A DNA stretch of 25,796 nt from Synechococcus sp. GTDB lineage: Bacteria; Cyanobacteriota; Cyanobacteriia; Thermostichales; PCC-7336. The position numbers were made by a program, and so were the translations under genes. Below the pieces are notes generated by a model that was not told where the DNA came from, ran no database searches, and saw nothing but the letters and a program-made list of their open reading frames with translations. Below, piece by piece: positions 4,859-19,134 of this stretch. Positions within the stretch are counted from its first letter, which is position 1. Each line of letters begins with the position of its first letter. Location: the NCBI GenBank assembly GCA_051439425.1, contig JBFRWD010000058.1, positions 1-25,796 of the forward strand, in the 5' to 3' direction.

Positions 4859-5078
4859 GCCCCAATGTCCTCACTCACTTTCAAGATAGCCCTGGAGCCT
4901 AAAAATGGAGCAGTAGCTAGCAAAATTCTATAAAGACTGGCAGACAAAAAGTAGCAACCGGTGTTACCTCTTCCCGCAATTATCTCAAGCGGAAGACAAA
5001 AGCTCTCTCAAGCTACCTGCAAATACCCATAACTCGATGGCGTCATTTAACCCGCTCGATTGAACAACAACCATCGAG

Positions 5079-8711: not shown

Positions 8712-8866
8712 GGTGCGGACAATGCAAATAACTTGGATTATTCTGGCACTTTGCTGGATGGCTTATCCTGTTGATTGTGAAGGCTGGCTACACGCTTTAT
8801 TTCAGCAATCCATTTGCCCTCGCGACTCTTTTCGTTCTGTCAATTCTTGCGCCGAAATTTCTTGCA

Positions 8867-9181
8867 ATGCCGACCTCAGTCACCTGCGCCCTCTGCGATC
8901 GCCACGTCCCCAAACTCACCAAGCATCACCTCATCCCCCGCACCCAACATAAGTATTACCGACTCAAAAAGGGATACAGTCGCGACCAACTCAATCAGAC
9001 GGTTCCCCTATGTCCTGCTTGCCATAAAAACGTGCACGCTACCATTAGTGAAAAAGAACTAGCTAGTGCTTACAATACCGTCGGTACCTTGCAACATCAC
9101 CCCGAGATTTCGAAATTTACCGAGTGGGTGCGCACCAAGCGAGGCAATCTCAAAGTTTCCTTCTGCCGTCGGCGCAGATGA
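8867..9181 (+). CDS. Small HNH-type (Zn-binding) endonuclease-like protein
   Basis: CALC..LTKHHLIP....LCPACHKNVH; start set at ATG 8867. Confidence 0.8.
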   Translation: MPTSVTCALCDRHVPKLTKHHLIPRTQHKYYRLKKGYSRDQLNQTVPLCPACHKNVHATISEKELASAYNTVGTLQHHPEISKFTEWVRTKRGNLKVSFCRRRR

Positions 9182-10759: not shown

Positions 10760-10902
10760 GTCTAGCCTTCGCGGTCCGAGGCCCCTGCCAGTTTGCCTTT
10801 TTAATAGATCGATACTGAACCCTGCCCATTTGTGGTGGGGTTTTGTAGTGGGTCGCTTAAAAAAGCTAGGGTTTTCTGCTCGGTCTAATACAAGCCTCTT
10901 TG

Positions 10903-10918: not shown

Positions 10919-11117
10919 ACAACCAAAAAGCTTTGAAACCATATTATTGAGATTCTGTAGAGAAAGCCTTCCGGGCCGATTTTGAGGATTACTGTGCGCA
11001 CAGGAAACGTAGCTCAGCCAACTAAAGTTACGGTTTGACACTTTAATTCCCCCTCGAATTTATGCTTCTTCTGTCTGAATTGCAGGAGCTATCGTTTGCC
11101 TCCAATCCGAATGTTTA

Positions 11118-12356
11118 GTGAGGAATTTTGGCTTGAATACCAACAAAACGTACCTTCGTTTGACACGGCGTAGCTTTGTTCGAGGAATTGTTTCAACCGT
11201 TGCCATTGGCGCAACTACCAAGCTAGCTGCGTGCGGTTCTGGCAGTGACACGGCCCCTACCCCTTCGACTGCCGACCCTGCAACCCCCGACACTGCAGCC
11301 CCCGAACCAGCAGCACCGGAAGTCATTAAGGTGGGGTTCATTTACGTCGGTCCTCAAGATGACTTTGGTTACAACCAGGCCCACGCAGAAGGCGCTGCAG
11401 GCATTGCCGGACTGGATACAGTCACCATCATTGAGGAAGCGAACGTCCCCGAAACGGTTGCCGTGCAAGAAACGATGCGCAGCATGATCGAGCTGGACGG
11501 CGTGACCGTACTGTTCCCCACCTCCTTCGGTTACTTCGATCCCCATATCTTGGCCTTAGCAGAAGAATTCCCAGACGTTCAGTTCTTCCATGCCGGTGGC
11601 CTCTACGAAGAGGGAGTCACGCCCGAAAATGTTGGTAGTTACTTTGGATATATCGACGAAGGTCAGTACATTGCTGGCATTATTGCCGGGCATGCCAGCG
11701 AAACTGGCAAGCTTGGTTTCGTCGCGGCCAAGCCGATTCCGCAAGTACTGCGCAACATAAACAGCTTTACTCTGGGGGCTCGAACGGTCAATCCCGAAGC
11801 AACTACACAAGTGGTATTTACCGGTGATTGGGCGCTGCCAGTCAAAGAAGCTGAAGCGGTCAATAGCATGGCCGACCAAGGCATTGAGGTTATTACCTGC
11901 CACGTTGATAGCCCCAAAGTGGTCATGGAGACTGCCGAACGACGAGGGATGCTGACCAGTGGTTATCACGCCGACCAATCGGCGCTTGCCCCTGAGGGTT
12001 ACCTAACCGGGGCCGAGTGGGACTGGAGCAATATCTATAACAACTACATGGTCATGCTGTCGGAAGGAAATACCTTGATGAATGGCGGCATCCCCCATTT
12101 AGTTCGGGGTGGATTAAAAGACGGTTTTTGCAAATTGTCACCGTTTGGGCCTGCGGTCTCTGACGAGGCAAAAACAGCGGCAGAAGAGGCGATCGCCCAG
12201 TTCAATTCTGACTCTGGCTTAACCATCTACACTGGCGAGCTGAAAGACAATCAGGGCAATGTTGTCATTGAAAGCGGCACTGAACTCGCCCAAATCGATC
12301 CCGTACTCGAACAAATGGATTACCTCGTAGAAGGAGTGATTGGCAGCATTGGCTAA
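11118..12356 (+). CDS. BMP-family ABC transporter substrate-binding lipoprotein (Tat signal)
   Basis: TRRSFV twin-arginine motif, LAAC lipobox, KVGFIYVGPQDDFGYNQAH, FPTSFGY. Start codon uncertain. Confidence 0.9.
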   Translation: MRNFGLNTNKTYLRLTRRSFVRGIVSTVAIGATTKLAACGSGSDTAPTPSTADPATPDTAAPEPAAPEVIKVGFIYVGPQDDFGYNQAHAEGAAGIAGLDTVTIIEEANVPETVAVQETMRSMIELDGVTVLFPTSFGYFDPHILALAEEFPDVQFFHAGGLYEEGVTPENVGSYFGYIDEGQYIAGIIAGHASETGKLGFVAAKPIPQVLRNINSFTLGARTVNPEATTQVVFTGDWALPVKEAEAVNSMADQGIEVITCHVDSPKVVMETAERRGMLTSGYHADQSALAPEGYLTGAEWDWSNIYNNYMVMLSEGNTLMNGGIPHLVRGGLKDGFCKLSPFGPAVSDEAKTAAEEAIAQFNSDSGLTIYTGELKDNQGNVVIESGTELAQIDPVLEQMDYLVEGVIGSIG

Positions 12357-12415
12357 CTGCTGATTCGTACTACTAGAGAGAAGGGCCAAACGAATACTCT
12401 GCCAAACACAAGAGC

Positions 12416-12467
12416 CAGGCTTACTGAAGCAGTTCGAGTAACGGTGACCCTCTTGAAAGTAAGCCTG
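12416..12467. repeat. Intergenic inverted-repeat element A
   Basis: CAGGCTTACT-N32-AGTAAGCCTG, perfect 10-bp arms. Confidence 0.75.
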
Positions 12468-12499
12468 AAACAGATTGGAAACACACTAGAGGTGAGCCG

Positions 12500-13597
12500 A
12501 TGGCGGGCCGGAACTGGCGACAGCAACTGGAAGCGGTGTGTCTGCCCGCAGGGGCATTATTGGTGGCTCTTGCCTTATTCGGAGCCTTTTGTGGATTAGC
12601 CGGAGCCAACCCCTTTGGGGTCTATCACTCCATTTGGAGGGCGGCGTTTGGTAGTGCCAGCCGCTGGCAAGGAACGTTGATTTTGGCAGCACCACTCATG
12701 CTGACCGCCCTATGTACTGCACTTCCCGCCAAGCTGGGGCTGGTGGTCATCGGCAACGAGGGGGCGCTCGTCATTGGCGGGCTGGCAGCAATTGTGGCGG
12801 GCTTGGGGTTGCAGACTTTGCCGACCCCGTTGGTACAAGTGGCGATGGCGATCGCTGCCATTGTTGGAGGGGGATTGTGGATCGCGGCTGTGGGGGCACT
12901 CCGTCACTATCGGGGGGTGAATGAAACCATCAGTAGCTTGCTGATGAACTTCATTGCGATTGCCATCCTCAATCAATTAGTGGAGGGGGTGCTGCGCGAC
13001 CCCAGTTCCCTGAACAAGCCATCTACCTGGCCCCTGTTGGACATCCACCGACTGGGGACCATTCCAGGAACGAGAGTGCACTTCGGGTTGATTTACGGAT
13101 TGGTCGCTTGCGCGATCGCCTACGTGCTAGTTCAGCAAACGACCTTTGGCTTTGCTGCACGAACGGCAGGGGGAAACATTCGGGCAGCCCGAATTGCTGG
13201 GCTACCGGTTGGAAAACTGACTCTCATCATTTGCTTTTTGGCGGGCTCCTGCGCGGGATTGGCGGGGATGGTGGAGGTGGCAGCGGTGCATGGCGTGGCC
13301 AACGCATCGCTGAATTCAAATTACGGATATAGCGGGATTCTGGTGGCGTTTATTGCCCGCTCGAACGCACTGGTGGTCACACCGATCGCGGTGTTGCTGG
13401 GGGGGATTTTGGCAAGCGGAGGGATTTTGCAGCGATCGCACGATCTTCCGGATGCCACTGTCTTGGTCTTTCAAGGCATCGTCTTTTTAGTCGTTCTCTA
13501 CAGCGAATCCCTTTACGGTCGCTTTGCTTGGTTCAAGCCGAAATCTCCGCCCCCTGCATCCTTGCCAGATGTTCGGGGTGCACCGACGGGTTCGTAG
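12500..13597 (+). CDS. ABC transporter permease (nucleoside/CUT2 type)
   Basis: Multi-TM; IGNEG, RGVNETISSLLMN, GYGYSGILVAF-like motifs. Confidence 0.9.
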   Translation: MAGRNWRQQLEAVCLPAGALLVALALFGAFCGLAGANPFGVYHSIWRAAFGSASRWQGTLILAAPLMLTALCTALPAKLGLVVIGNEGALVIGGLAAIVAGLGLQTLPTPLVQVAMAIAAIVGGGLWIAAVGALRHYRGVNETISSLLMNFIAIAILNQLVEGVLRDPSSLNKPSTWPLLDIHRLGTIPGTRVHFGLIYGLVACAIAYVLVQQTTFGFAARTAGGNIRAARIAGLPVGKLTLIICFLAGSCAGLAGMVEVAAVHGVANASLNSNYGYSGILVAFIARSNALVVTPIAVLLGGILASGGILQRSHDLPDATVLVFQGIVFLVVLYSESLYGRFAWFKPKSPPPASLPDVRGAPTGS

Positions 13598-13678
13598 TCA
13601 TTTGTCAGGCTAACTGAGTAATTGCTTCCTTACACAGAATTACGCCTAGTAGATGTAACAGGGGATCGCGCTCACTCA

Positions 13679-13731
13679 TAGGCTTGCTGCAATGCCCTTG
13701 TAAATTGGCCTCAGCACCCTGAGCAAGCCTA
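13679..13731. repeat. Intergenic inverted-repeat element B
   Basis: TAGGCTTGCT-N33-AGCAAGCCTA, perfect 10-bp arms. Confidence 0.75.
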
Positions 13732-13758
13732 AAAAACAACACGTAGGAAAGAGATAGT

Positions 13759-14691
13759 ATGGCAGCCTCAGCGCTGGGATGGTGGGGGGTTCCCCTCGGA
13801 ATTGTGGCCGGTACTCTACGTGGTAGTACCCCGTTTCTGCTGGTCAGCTTGGGAGAATGCTTGACAGAAAAGAGCGGCAAGATCAACCTCGGCTTAGAAG
13901 GCACGTTGCTGACGGGGGCGATGAGCGCTTATGCCATCTCTTACCTCACGGGCTCGCCGTGGCTGGGGGTCGTCGTTGCCGGTGTGGCGGGCTGCGTGTT
14001 GGGACTGCTGCACAGTTGGCTGGCCCAACAGCCTAAAGTCAGCGACGTGGCCGTCGGCATTGCCATGATTATTTTCGGCAGCGGCATCGCCTTCTTTTTT
14101 GGCAAACCGTTTATCCAGCCGCCTGCGCCCCAATTGCCGACGATTCCATTGGGGGGCTGGAGTAGCATTCCGCAGGTACAGGCTGCTCTGCAAGTCAGTC
14201 CGCTCTTTTTGTTGGGAATTCTCTGTGCCCCGCTGATGAGGTGGTTCTTTCGCAGTACTCGCTGGGGACTGTACGTACGAGCAGTGGGCGATCGCCCGGA
14301 AGCGGCCAAGGCGATGGGAGTATCGGTCAAGCAGGTGCGGACCTGGGCGATCGTGGTGGGCAGCATTTTGGCCGGAATTGGTGGGGCCTATCTGTCGTTG
14401 GTCTATCCCGGTAGCTGGAACGAACGCATTTCCAGCGGCCAGGGGTTGATGGCGGTGGCACTGGTGATTTTTGCCCGCTGGAATCCGATTCAGTGCTTGT
14501 GGGCATCGCTGCTATTCGGCGGAGCGCAGGCGATTGGTCCGGCACTGCAGTCGGTGGGGGTGGATTCCTTCTATTACTTGTGGAATGCGTCACCGTATTT
14601 TCTGACGCTGGCCATCATGATTGTCACCTGCTCTCCCAAGCGGACGTTGGTGGGTGCTCCTGGTGCGCTCGGGCAGCCCAATACTGAATGA
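13759..14691 (+). CDS. ABC transporter permease (nucleoside/CUT2 type)
   Basis: LGECLTEKSGKINLGLEG, RAVGDRPEAAKAMGV, GQGLMAVALVIFARWNP. Confidence 0.9.
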   Translation: MAASALGWWGVPLGIVAGTLRGSTPFLLVSLGECLTEKSGKINLGLEGTLLTGAMSAYAISYLTGSPWLGVVVAGVAGCVLGLLHSWLAQQPKVSDVAVGIAMIIFGSGIAFFFGKPFIQPPAPQLPTIPLGGWSSIPQVQAALQVSPLFLLGILCAPLMRWFFRSTRWGLYVRAVGDRPEAAKAMGVSVKQVRTWAIVVGSILAGIGGAYLSLVYPGSWNERISSGQGLMAVALVIFARWNPIQCLWASLLFGGAQAIGPALQSVGVDSFYYLWNASPYFLTLAIMIVTCSPKRTLVGAPGALGQPNTE

Positions 14692-14757
14692 GTTTGCAGG
14701 CTGACTATTAGAGAAGTCGTCAGATAGCAAAACACTGCAGTTATATAGGTGAACTGG

Positions 14758-14811
14758 TCAGGCTGACTTTGCAGGAGATCGACAAATTGAAAAACACTGC
14801 AGTCAGCCTGA
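14758..14811. repeat. Intergenic inverted-repeat element C
   Basis: TCAGGCTGACT-N32-AGTCAGCCTGA, perfect 11-bp arms; degenerate tandem copy starts at 14697. Confidence 0.75.
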
Positions 14812-14869
14812 ATTGGATTTGCATTTCTCACGTTTTCATTAACAGAACGCTAACAACTGGAGAACGAGG

Positions 14870-15907
14870 ATGAGCGGACTTGGTGGACTGAATAAATCAC
14901 CCAACGGCGTCGTGGTTGGGATGGTGCAATCGCAATTGCCTGTGGTGGTGACCCCCGATGACTTGGCGGCTCAATGCGATCGCATCTGCGAGATGGTGGC
15001 GAAGGCGCGACGCAACATGCCCACTATGGATTTGGTGGTGTTTCCCGAGTACAGCCTGCACGGGTTGTCGATGGACACCAATCCCGAGATCATGTGCCGG
15101 TTGGATGGACCGGAGGTAAAAGCCTTTCAAGCCGCCTGTAAAGAGAACGCCATCTGGGGGTGCTTCTCGATCATGGAATACAACCCCGACGGCAACCCCT
15201 ACAACAGCGGCATCATCATTGACGACACCGGGGAACTGAAGCTGTACTATCGCAAACTGCACCCTTGGGTGCCGGTAGAGCCTTGGGAACCTGGAAATAT
15301 CGGCATTCCGGTGTGCGAAGGTCCAAACGGCAGCACGCTGGCCCTCATCATCTGCCACGACGGCATGTTCCCGGAGATGGCTCGCGAATGCGCTTATAAA
15401 GGAGCCGAAATTGCCATCCGCACAGCAGGCTACACCGCCCCCATTCGCCATTCTTGGAAAATCACCAACCAGGCCAACGCCTTCTGCAATTTGATGTACA
15501 CCGCATCGGTTTGCATGTGCGGCAGCGACGGCACGTTTGACTCGATGGGAGAGGGGATGATCGTCAATTTTGACGGGGTGCCGCTGGTGGAAGGGGGCAA
15601 CCGTCCGGATGAGATTATTACTGCCGAATTGCGCCCCGATCTAGTGCGCGAGGCCCGCAAACACTGGAGTGTCGAGAATAATATCTATCAATTCGGCCAT
15701 CGCGGTTACACAGCCGTCAAGGGTGGTGCTCAAGACTGCCCATATACGTATATGCGTGATTTAGTCGATGAAAACTACCGCTTACCTTGGGAGGACGAGG
15801 TGGTGGTGACCGACGGGACATCCTGCGGGTTCGACGCTCCCACCCGCGAGTATCGCGGCGAAGAGTTGCCAAATGCAGATATCCCATCCCCAGTAGCAAA
15901 AGGTTAA
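14870..15907 (+). CDS. amiF: Formamidase (AmiF-type, nitrilase/CN-hydrolase superfamily)
   Basis: Catalytic E-K-C in [13 protein letters not shown] and [24 protein letters not shown]. Confidence 0.85.
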
Positions 15908-16587
15908 TGATGACCTACGTAGAATCCAGTCCCTACCCGTATCCCTACAACGGCGAGTTGCATCCCACTAATACAGCGCTGATCGTCATCGACATGCAGA
16001 CTGACTTTTGCGGGGTGGGCGGCTACGTGGACAAGATGGGCTACGACCTCACCCTTACCCGCGCTCCTATCGAGCCGATCGCCAAACTATTGGAAGCAAT
16101 GCGGGAGAAGGGGTACACCATTCTGCATACCCGCGAAGGTCATCGCCCCGACCTGTCAGACTTACCTGCCAACAAGCGCTGGAGATCGCAGCAAATCGGG
16201 GCGGGCATTGGCGATCCCGGCCCCTGCGGCAAGATTTTGGTTCGTGGCGAGGCCGGATGGGAAATTATCCCCGAGTTGGCTCCATTGCCGGGGGAACCCA
16301 TCATTGATAAGCCAGGAAAGGGAGCATTTTTTGCCACCGATCTTGACCTGCTTCTCACTCGCTTGGGTATCCAAAACCTCATCCTCACCGGCATCACCAC
16401 AGATGTGTGCGTGCACACCACCATGCGGGAGGCCAACGATCGCGGCTATGAATGCTTACTGCTCTCGGACTGTACGGGGGCAACTGATTACGGCAATTAC
16501 CTGGCGGCTCTGAAGATGGTGGAAATGCAAGGGGGAGTGTTTGGGGCGATCGCCACTTCTACTGCTTTACTGGAGGCGATCGCGTGA
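15907..16587 (+). CDS. biuH: Biuret hydrolase (isochorismatase-like cysteine hydrolase)
   Basis: [45 protein letters not shown] overlap with the formamidase stop. Confidence 0.85.
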
Positions 16588-18137
16588 CAGCAACAACACC
16601 TACGCCAGTCAGCGGGCAGCTCGATTGTTCTCCACCTGAATTAGAGATCGTCGATCTGACCAAAACTTTCGGTACCTTTACTGCCCTCGATCGCGTCTCG
16701 ATGACTGTGAAACCGGGTACGTTTCACGGCTTGTTGGGCGAAAATGGCGCGGGCAAGAGCACGCTGGTGAAGTGCGTAATGGGGTTTCATCAGCCAACAG
16801 CGGGGGATGTATTGGTCGGTCGCCAGTCCCGTCAGATTGGCAGTCCCAAAGACGCTCACCGCTATGGCATCGGCATGGTCTACCAGCACTTCACGTCGGT
16901 ACCAGCCATGACGGTGGCCGAGAACTTAGTGTTATGCCGCTACGACAGCCCATTAGTGATTGACTGGTCAGCAGAGAAGGCTGCTCTACAAGAGTTTGTC
17001 GATGCCTCTCCGTTTCACATTCCGCTGGACGTTCCAGTTGGTCAACTGGCAGCTGGGCAAAAACAAAAGCTTGAAATTCTCAAGCAGCTCTATCTCAACA
17101 GCACAATCTTGATTCTGGACGAACCCACGTCGGTGCTGACCCCCGGCGAAGCTGACGAAGTATTGGGGTTGCTGCGGGAACAGGTGCAGGCCGGTCTTCT
17201 CAGTGTTTTGCTGATTACTCACAAATTTCGTGAGGTGCAGGCGTTTGTAGACGAGGTAACGGTACTGCGAAAAGGCAAGCTGGCCGGACAAGGCCACGTT
17301 TGCGACTTAACCATGTCAGATTTGGCCACCATGATGCTGGGAGAAGCGCGGGCTCCCCAACAGATAGATAAGACATCTGTGGAAACTCCGTCGCCCGTGT
17401 TGGAGATTGCTGACCTTGAAGCGGATGGTGACAACGGATTATCGGCTGTTAATGGTGTCTCGCTGACGGTGAGTGCGGGCGAGATTGTTGGTATTGCTGG
17501 GGTGTCAGGCAACGGTCAGAAAGAATTTGTGGAAGTCTTGGCCGGTCAAAGACTGTCTACCGCAGGTAGTGTGTGTGTCAGCGGCAAGCCCTATCGAGCG
17601 ACGCGAGAAGAGATGGCCGAACTAAACGTGTTCGCTCTTCCTGAAGAGCCGCTGAAAAATGCCTGCGTCCCCCACATGACAGTCGCGGAAAATATGGCAC
17701 TGCGAACCTTCGATCGCCCCCCCCAAGCCAAAGCTGGTCTGCTGTTGGTGTGGAAGGCCATTCGAGAATCTGCGCGATCGCTGGTTCGAACCTTCTCTGT
17801 ACAAACTCCATCCACCGAAGCTCCTATCTCCCAGCTATCCGGAGGTAATGTACAGCGGGCGGTGCTGGCGCGAGAGCTATCGAGCGAGCGAATAAATTTG
17901 CTCATTGCTGCCAATCCCTGCTTTGGGCTGGACTTCAATGCGGTGGATTACATTCACGAGAAAATCGTGGCGGCTCGCAATCGCGGCGTTGCGGTGTTGT
18001 TGGTGAGCGAGGATTTAGACGAGTTGTTGACGCTCTCAGATCGCATTTTGGTAATGAGCGAAGGTCGCATCGCATACGAAAGCCCGATTGCCGAGGCGGA
18101 TTTTGAGGCGATCGGTCGCAGCATGGCAGGTCACTAA
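16584..18137 (+). CDS. ABC transporter ATP-binding protein (two NBDs, CUT2 type)
   Basis: [33 protein letters not shown] overlap with biuH. Confidence 0.93.
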
Positions 18138-18484
18138 TGCAAGAGCAATTGTGCTGGGAAAATCTGCTGAGCATTGGCGATCGCACTGATGACATCCCCT
18201 GGCAGCCGTTCCGCCCAGGAGTCGATATTCACTATTTGTACAAAGACAAGTCGGGAGCAGCTTGCGCTCTGCTACGCTATCAACCCGGAGCCAAGGTACC
18301 GCTTCACAAGCATGGCGGGTACGAACACATCTTTGTCTTATCGGGCGCACAGACCGACGAACATGCCACCCATCGGGCCGGGTCGTTCACCATCAACCCT
18401 CCCGAAACCATTCATAGTGTTGCCAGCGAGGACGGGTGTATTGTGCTGATTATTTGGGAGCGTCCGGTAGAACTATGCCAGTAA
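18137..18484 (+). CDS. Cupin (ChrR-like) small protein
   Basis: [27 protein letters not shown]...NPPETIHSV metal-binding cupin motifs; TAATG coupling. Confidence 0.85.
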
Positions 18485-19134
18485 TTCGCGCTCAACCCTA
18501 CGACTACGATTGCCCGCGAGAGGGTGTGGCTCTGCTGTTGATCGATATGCAGCGTGACTTTATGGAAGTTGGGGGATTTGGAGAAGCGTTGGGCAATGAT
18601 GTCAGCACTTTGCGCGCGATTGTGCCCACGGTTAAATCTCTGCTGGAGTTTTTTCGAGCCCAGAATTTGCCGGTAATTCATACGTTGGAATGTCATCAGC
18701 CAGACCTATCTGATTGCCCGCCTTCGAAACGAGATCGCGGGAATGGCACGCTCAAAATCGGCGATATAGGGCCAATGGGTCGCATTTTGATTCGAGGGGA
18801 ATTAGGGAACGCAATTATTCCGGAAGTAGCTCCACTTCCTGACGAACTGTGTATTTACAAGCCCGGAAAGGGAGCTTTTTACAACACAAATTTGGACGAA
18901 GAGTTGCAAGCACGAGGAATTACTCACTTGATTGTGGGAGGGGTGACAACCGAGGTGTGCGTGCAGAGCACAATGCGCGAAGCGAACGATCGCGGCTACG
19001 AGTGTTTGGTAGTGGAAGATGCCACCGAGAGTTATTTCCCAGAATTTAAACAAGCCACTTTGGAGATGGTGAGAGCGCAGGGTGGAATTGTGGGTTGGAC
19101 GACATCTGCAAAAGAAGTAATGGCGGGGCTTTAG
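18475..19134 (+). CDS. trtA: Triuret hydrolase (cysteine hydrolase, BiuH paralogue)
   Basis: [45 protein letters not shown] at the positions where BiuH has Y/M/Y/D/T/V. Confidence 0.8.

Follow-up and report, generated by a model that had tools for sequence, protein, structure and literature searches.

A candidate family of small palindromic repeats in the first three junctions of a cyanobacterial biuret-utilization operon

Conserved inverted ends, a spacer kept in length and not in sequence, and common compensatory changes are the features given for REPINs in the part of their description that we draw on (PMC3116915). The same part of that source treats singlets as defunct remnants, reports tandem clusters, and has Bertels and Rainey finding such repeats in genomes containing RAYT (REP-associated tyrosine transposase), including that of the cyanobacterium Nostoc punctiforme (PMC3116915). 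Palindromic repeat families are reported in cyanobacteria in the excerpted text of two further papers (PMC3733652, PMC12306157), the first of which names Nezha as the cyanobacterial example of a MITE (miniature inverted-repeat transposable element) and puts MITE terminal repeats at 15-30 bp. We analyzed a 25,796-nt stretch of Synechococcus sp. DNA (contig JBFRWD010000058.1; the whole stretch is called the window, and all coordinates are those of the window) and found three intact inverted repeats, copies 1 to 3, in the first three junctions of an eight-gene biuret operon, along with two apparently decayed copies. We consider it probable, though well short of certain, that these five sequences belong to a cyanobacterial family of small, non-autonomous palindromic repeats, REPIN-like or MITE-like in kind. 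What carries this reading is the insertion relative to other bacteria, the homology to an unrelated locus, the mixed orientation of the copies and the presence of remnants; the mobility of such a family, its mechanism and any effect on mRNA are inferred.

The three repeats were found exactly where an earlier note on this DNA had reported them, and in each the arms of 10-11 bp are perfectly complementary (Table 1). The repeat unit is ~52-54 nt long, with the end consensus (T)YAGGCTKRCT, a core of 32-33 nt that is weakly conserved in sequence, and an asymmetric A/C-rich tail on one side. The pattern AGGCTNNCT-N28-38-AGNNAGCCT matched three times in the window and in none of 100 dinucleotide-preserving shuffles. 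When the entire window was searched for perfect inverted repeats whose loops measure 20-45 nt, 15 were detected in which the arms reach 8 bp or more; of these, only copies 1 to 3 have arms of 10 bp or longer. The half-site AGGCTNNCT occurred 12 times in the window (3.15 expected), with 8 of the 12 occurrences within the three spacers. Two further claims of the note held as made, namely that the loops are of fixed length (32, 33 and 32 nt) and that no U-tract follows the repeats, each of which ends a short way before the next start codon; an A-rich sequence stands where a U-tract would be, and the distances from the 3' arm to the start codon are 32, 27 and 58 nt for copies 1, 2 and 3. Intrinsic terminators, taken as tight GC-rich hairpins followed by a U-tract, do not describe these loci with their loops of 32-33 nt, and a terminator scan gave no site at copies 1 to 3, where no internal promoter was predicted either. 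We also looked for convincing small open reading frames (ORFs) in the three spacers and found none. Several apparent signals were rejected: the hexamer AAACAC near the copies (18 occurrences against 12.5 expected, a number reached by 6 of 100 shuffles), a whole-spacer similarity extending past the arms (local alignments within the window recovered the arms only, p 0.08-0.4), and an apparent match of CTAYTAGAGA between spacers 1 and 3, which was below significance.

We scanned genome contigs with the pattern CAGGCTNRCT-N30-35-AGYNAGCCTG and obtained at least 120 loci. Among the matches listed, 99 were titled Pseudomonas and two were cyanobacterial, L032 and L102. The L102 record is a metagenome-assembled genome (MAG) titled Cyanobacteria bacterium J06642_12, which differs from the source genome of the window. 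Its arms are identical to those of copy 1, its loop is 32 nt long, and it occupies a 184-nt gap between the C-terminus of a phosphoketolase (Pfam XFP_C, E 4.9e-14) and the N-terminus of a glycogen phosphorylase (E 9.6e-36 to PDB 9wvu), the two genes being co-directional. Between the end of the element and the GTG start codon that follows lie 22 nt. L032 (Elainellaceae MAG, 5001-5054) is likewise a perfect repeat, its arms being 10 bp or longer and its loop 34 nt, but it lies inside a pentapeptide-repeat coding sequence, scores only 19.9 bits with the covariance model and was set aside as probably a chance or coding-driven palindrome. BLAST of a plasmid collection with the L102 element and spacer 3 as queries returned only non-cyanobacterial matches with E of at least 2, and the flanks of the window found no close cyanobacterial replicon in that collection.

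The three-sequence alignment was too gappy for a leave-one-out covariance model, and relationships between copies were assessed by ungapped counts in both orientations. When reverse-complemented, the loop of copy 3 agreed with that of L102 in 19 of 32 positions, as against 9 of 32 unflipped, and an identity of 19/32 was reached by only 2 of 50,000 composition-preserving shuffles. The loop of copy 1 agreed with that of L102 in the same orientation (14/32, and 6/32 when flipped). Counts over the flanks and loop ends followed the same pattern: copies 1 and 2 matched L102 at 10/32 and 17/32 positions in the same orientation and at 4/32 and 5/32 when flipped, and copy 3 matched at 16/32 positions reverse-complemented and 7/32 unflipped. 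Copy 2 and L102 in addition have 15 of 17 positions in common across the arm and flanks (CA-arm-GCAAT). Because its loop matches L102 when reverse-complemented, we take copy 3 to lie in the opposite orientation to the other two. As far as oriented alignment can tell, the copies share descent, core included, and their orientation relative to transcription is not fixed, with copies 1 and 2 forward and copy 3 inverted. The earlier note had called the spacers unrelated in sequence; this is nearly so when loop is compared with loop within the window (p 0.04-0.9), but the relationship to L102 emerges once orientation is allowed for.

The author of the note had not seen this architecture elsewhere in the window. 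No other intact copy was found, but a partial copy and a probable decayed one had been missed. The partial copy begins 5 nt past the permease 2 stop codon and forms a 45-nt direct repeat with 14759-14803, to which it is 76% identical at a spacing of 62 nt. The other remnant begins 6 nt past the permease 1 stop codon. It was matched by the covariance model on the minus strand at 13602-13652, weakly (10.4 bits, E 0.6), and its arm with an ACAAAT tail resembles the L102 arm with ACAAAC; from these resemblances it is a probable decayed inverted copy. The covariance model detected no further copy in the window. Copies and remnants, five in all, lie within 2.4 kb, and the other 23 kb contain none.

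We compared the operon with those of four proteobacterial plasmids, chosen from 550 matching records for a whole-operon match and for their different genera. Junctions 1, 2 and 3 (between substrate-binding protein and permease 1, between the two permeases, and between permease 2 and formamidase) measure 143, 161 and 178 nt in the window. In Rhizobium leguminosarum (L121) they are 20 nt, an overlap and 12 nt; in Pseudomonas luteola (L122), 10 nt, an overlap and 12 nt; in Klebsiella pneumoniae (L123), 9 nt, an overlap and 12 nt; and in Peteryoungia (L124), 19 nt, an overlap and 22 nt. Protein ends align across the junctions, the binding protein ending in ...LVEGV(I/V)GS and the formamidase beginning with M(S/N)GLGGLNKS. 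Since the junctions are tight or overlapping in all four proteobacterial operons and the protein ends align, the repeat-bearing spacers are best read as insertions particular to the cyanobacterial lineage. Only these first three junctions are expanded in the window; the other four are 2 nt long or overlapping.

Compared with REPINs, the repeats have the same arrangement of two conserved inverted ends, a spacer kept in length (32, 33, 32 and 32 nt in the four intact copies, L102 included), a hairpin predicted with both RNA and DNA parameters, compensatory changes (3 of 10 arm pairs, in only four sequences), orphan ends and tandem clusters. They are similarly extragenic, including between cistrons, and have no target-site duplication. 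Unlike REPINs, they have ends of 10-11 nt that are not themselves short palindromes, and their unit of ~52-54 nt differs from the GI REPIN, for which the excerpted description gives 71 bp between the end 16-mers. Moreover, neither GTAG/CTAC nor CGTC/GACG, the tag as given in the available part of PMC3733652, was present in the 8-nt flanks of any of the four intact copies. The earlier note did not recognize the architecture as a known family. In agreement with this, Rfam gave no match at gathering score across the whole window and none at E up to 5 over 12300-14900; the architecture is nevertheless of a known kind, and the REPIN description, in the part that we draw on (PMC3116915), fits closely. 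We regard the repeats as REPIN-like in behavior and do not file them as REPINs, since there is no tag, the arms are not palindromes and no RAYT gene is present among the window ORFs (Pfam).

MITEs are usually longer than 100 bp, and those of the Correia/NEMIS, ERIC and RUP families are co-transcribed with neighboring genes, where their mRNA stem-loops can stabilize or destabilize the transcript. The repeats resemble MITEs in having perfect terminal inverted repeats (10-11 bp), no coding capacity, a position beside coding sequences and predicted stem-loops in mRNA. They are not typical MITEs, as their short ends enclose a unit of only 52-54 bp, their internal sequence is poorly conserved, and none of the four intact copies has a flanking duplication. 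The small dispersed repeats (SDR) of heterocyst-forming cyanobacteria, reportedly described by Elhai et al. in Genome Res in 2008, are said to have units of 21-27 nt; by description only, these too are very small, apparently mobile and intergenic, and they come from a different clade. Outside the cyanobacteria, the repeats of the Pseudomonas fluorescens group (CAGGCTCRCTCCYACA...) are 50-55 nt long and their outer 10 nt fit CAGGCTNRCT and AGYNAGCCTG, but unlike the cyanobacterial repeats they typically form perfect stems of 15-19 bp with short loops. Among the matches listed, this hairpin repeat was found only in the 99 Pseudomonas-titled loci, and the resemblance of the arms is most simply a coincidence. 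The hairpin repeat of the P. fluorescens group is very abundant. Integron attC sites do not fit either, for the flanking genes form one syntenic operon conserved in four proteobacteria, no integrase is present among the window ORFs, and the arms are unlike what we take to be the attC core-site motif. The family itself appears to be undescribed, judging from generic literature searches.

If the repeats are such a family, copies would have been inserted in either orientation, sometimes adjacent to one another, into the first three junctions of the biuret ABC-transporter operon, and these insertions would have widened junctions at which the genes of other bacteria lie close together or overlap. 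The family would propagate or persist as a hairpin in single-stranded DNA or in RNA, as has been proposed for REPINs. Since the family would spread as a hairpin, the covariation of the arms would reflect its own need for that structure and not a tuning of the operon. As the earlier note had claimed, the arms differ between copies and yet stay paired: across copies 1 to 3 and L102, all 40 arm cells are Watson-Crick with no G-U, and 3 of 10 pairs have changed on both sides. Such covariation was reached by 9 of 500 shuffles, with four sequences being too few to separate a constraint on RNA from one on DNA. Copies 1, 2 and 3 fold as RNA at -18.8 (z -2.0), -18.9 (z -1.9) and -25.7 kcal/mol (z -3.6); with DNA parameters they give -9.7, -10.6 and -13.6 kcal/mol, and L102 gives -13.2 kcal/mol. 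When RNA contexts up to 450 nt long are folded, the probability of arm pairing is 0.92 or more for copies 1 and 3 and only 0.01-0.45 for copy 2. In the polycistronic mRNA, a large loop closed by a 10-11-bp stem would then stand at each of the three junctions. Translation of the three genes downstream would be uncoupled, each having a ribosome-binding site of its own, and the stems may retard decay by exonucleases or serve as marks for processing. Masking of the downstream ribosome-binding site by the loop was considered as well; by inspection, the copy 1 loop contains CCTCT against a downstream AGAGG, and no such pairing was seen in copies 2 and 3 or L102, so masking was dismissed as a property of the repeats in general.

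A number of observations weigh against a mobile repeat family. The three intact copies fall in three successive junctions and no copy lies in the other 23 kb, which is more clustered than random insertion predicts and means that the family is not dense. Among the matches listed, the source genome is absent, and the only copy outside the biuret operon is L102, in another genome. Target-site duplications flank none of the four intact copies, and no transposase or RAYT gene was found among the window ORFs with Pfam. The arms of the four intact copies have remained perfect (40/40 pairs) while the loops diverged to 40-60% identity, a combination that in-place selection for a host function could explain just as well. 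Finally, the tail after copy 1 contains a Shine-Dalgarno-like CACTAGAGG 7 nt before the permease 1 ATG, and CACTAGAGG with the same 7-nt spacing to the start also follows L102. This 9-nt stretch is the longest common substring of the two downstream regions, a length reached by 20 of 5000 shuffles, and CACTAGAGG has no other occurrence in the window. That both copy 1 and L102 lie just upstream of a start codon with the same 9-mer hints at a functional position.

Selection in place is most directly expressed in the possibility, unlikely in our judgment though not remote, that once mobile palindromes now serve as selected intercistronic stem-loops that block 3'-exonucleases or define processing sites and so raise the amount of binding protein above that of permease. 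In each of the three intact copies the arms have stayed perfect despite the divergence of the loops, which fits such a role, and copy 1 follows the gene of the substrate-binding protein; the malE-malF and hisJ-hisQ junctions are the classic position of REP elements in enterobacterial transport operons. The strong arm pairing of copies 1 and 3 in the longer RNA contexts agrees with this, but that of copy 2 is poor, and a 10-bp stem on a 32-nt loop would be a weak barrier to an exonuclease compared with typical GC-rich REP stems. A ribosome-binding site after the forward copies is also in its favor, whereas the decayed copies in the same spacers and the lack of a fixed orientation are not what retained stem-loops would lead one to expect. 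The ribosome-binding sequence admits a different emphasis, to which we give only a small chance: the repeats may be portable intercistronic modules, each a hairpin with an outward ribosome-binding tail (arm-ACAAAC-CACTAGAGG-N7-start), conserved between cyanobacterial genomes and converting three coupled junctions into independently initiated cistrons, with an effect on stoichiometry. Because it would supply the downstream translation start, such a module could insert between co-directional genes without polar damage. From the sequences downstream of copy 1 and L102, the forward unit may indeed carry a ribosome-binding tail.

The earlier note had inferred a structured RNA element acting in cis, or else a palindromic DNA site. 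Part of the RNA reading stands, as the arms do covary and each copy can fold. That a dedicated structured RNA, such as an attenuator or an element for protein binding or RNase processing, evolved within the operon and sets the stoichiometry of the subunits seems to us distinctly improbable, although three copies in three consecutive junctions and nowhere else in the window, covarying arms and a fixed loop length are all in line with it. Against an operon-specific device stand the homologous copy L102 between unrelated genes of another genome, the decayed copies, and the absence of the spacers from all four proteobacterial orthologues; the last of these and the occurrence of L102 at unrelated genes are findings of the kind that the note itself had held against its interpretation. 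With copy 3 inverted relative to the other two, any strand-specific signal in the loop or flanks differs from copy to copy. There is likewise no U-tract, terminator or Rfam match at the repeats, and inspection of the loops gave no consistent anti-Shine-Dalgarno pairing. Indifference to orientation would fit if the repeats are double-stranded DNA sites, with two 10-bp half-sites whose centers are ~42-43 bp apart bound by a dimeric or tetrameric recombinase, transposase or regulator and the pairing a by-product of the dyad: the arms are alike on both strands, the spacing is fixed at 32-33 bp, and the 40 arm pairs are strictly Watson-Crick. We nonetheless regard such sites as very doubtful, for half-sites would need no matched changes and yet 3 of 10 positions have changed on both sides, no DNA-binding or recombinase gene lies nearby, and operon junctions would be an odd place for a regulator. 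Taken together, an origin as a repeat element is likelier than a regulatory one.

Table 1. Coordinates of the repeats, the host operon and nearby features in the window
Feature	Coordinates	Strand	Description
Intact copy 1	12416..12467	+	Arms CAGGCTTACT / AGTAAGCCTG, 32-nt loop; L102-like orientation
Tail after copy 1	12468..12499	+	Contains CACTAGAGG at 12484-12492
Probable decayed copy	13604..13652	-	Inverted relative to copy 2; intact arm CAGGCTAACT (+ strand, 13606-13615), degenerate partner, shortened loop
Intact copy 2	13679..13731	+	Arms TAGGCTTGCT / AGCAAGCCTA, 33-nt loop; L102-like orientation
Partial tandem copy of copy 3	14697..14741	-	One arm and most of the loop kept, other arm lost
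Intact copy 3	14758..14811	-	Arms TCAGGCTGACT / AGTCAGCCTGA, 32-nt loop; flipped relative to copies 1, 2 and L102
Biuret operon	11118..19134	+	Eight genes
BMP-family substrate-binding protein	11118-12356	+	Pfam
Permease 1	12500-13597	+	Pfam
Permease 2	13759-14691	+	Pfam
Formamidase	14870-15907	+	NCBIfam 580.8 bits, cut-off 406
Biuret amidohydrolase BiuH	15910-16587	+	NCBIfam 413.5 bits, cut-off 370
Double ABC ATPase	16584-18137	+	Pfam
Cupin	18137-18484	+	Pfam
Second BiuH-like hydrolase	18436-19134	+	NCBIfam 241 bits, below cut-off
136-aa ORF	8771-9181	+	Between the CysZ and NfeD genes; marginal HNH endonuclease match
Terminator-like hairpin with T-run	10825-10848	+	CCCATTTGTGGTGGG GTTTTGT; after the Band 7/SPFH gene
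GTA-N8-AAC	11009-11022		~100 nt upstream of the substrate-binding-protein start

By its gene content, the host operon is a biuret-utilization cluster with a BMP-type ABC transporter (Table 1). The formamidase is ~77% identical to the Rhizobium protein, and the second BiuH-like gene, as listed, shares its first 49 nt with the cupin gene (18436-18484), so it may really start further downstream. In the alphaproteobacterial operons L121 and L124 the cupin and second hydrolase genes have changed places, and the proteobacterial plasmid operons adjoin genes for allophanate hydrolase (atzF) or cyanuric acid hydrolase (atzD). The window itself is cyanobacterial, encoding an ARC6/Ftn2-type division protein and containing 32 HIP1 octamers; since 10 of these lie inside the operon, it has long been resident in the cyanobacterial lineage. 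Upstream of the operon, the GTA-N8-AAC sequence resembles what we take to be the NtcA box, which would fit nitrogen control of the biuret genes. The terminator-like hairpin after the Band 7/SPFH gene, as modeled, is probably where the transcription unit that precedes the biuret operon ends. The HNH match of the 136-aa ORF scored 22.1 bits against a cut-off of 21.4 (E 1.6e-4).

Cyanobacteria lack Rho, and the formation of many of their RNA 3' ends is described as unclear in the excerpted text of PMC12642595. If the repeats described here do form a family of their own, hairpin covariation among local copies can come from a repeat family in need of its own hairpin and does not have to mean a regulatory RNA of the host operon, a point of caution for those who scan genomes. 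The biuret operon, its eight genes tightly joined in proteobacteria and with expanded junctions in this cyanobacterium, also provides a natural comparison that could serve to test the effect of small palindromic insertions on polycistronic expression.

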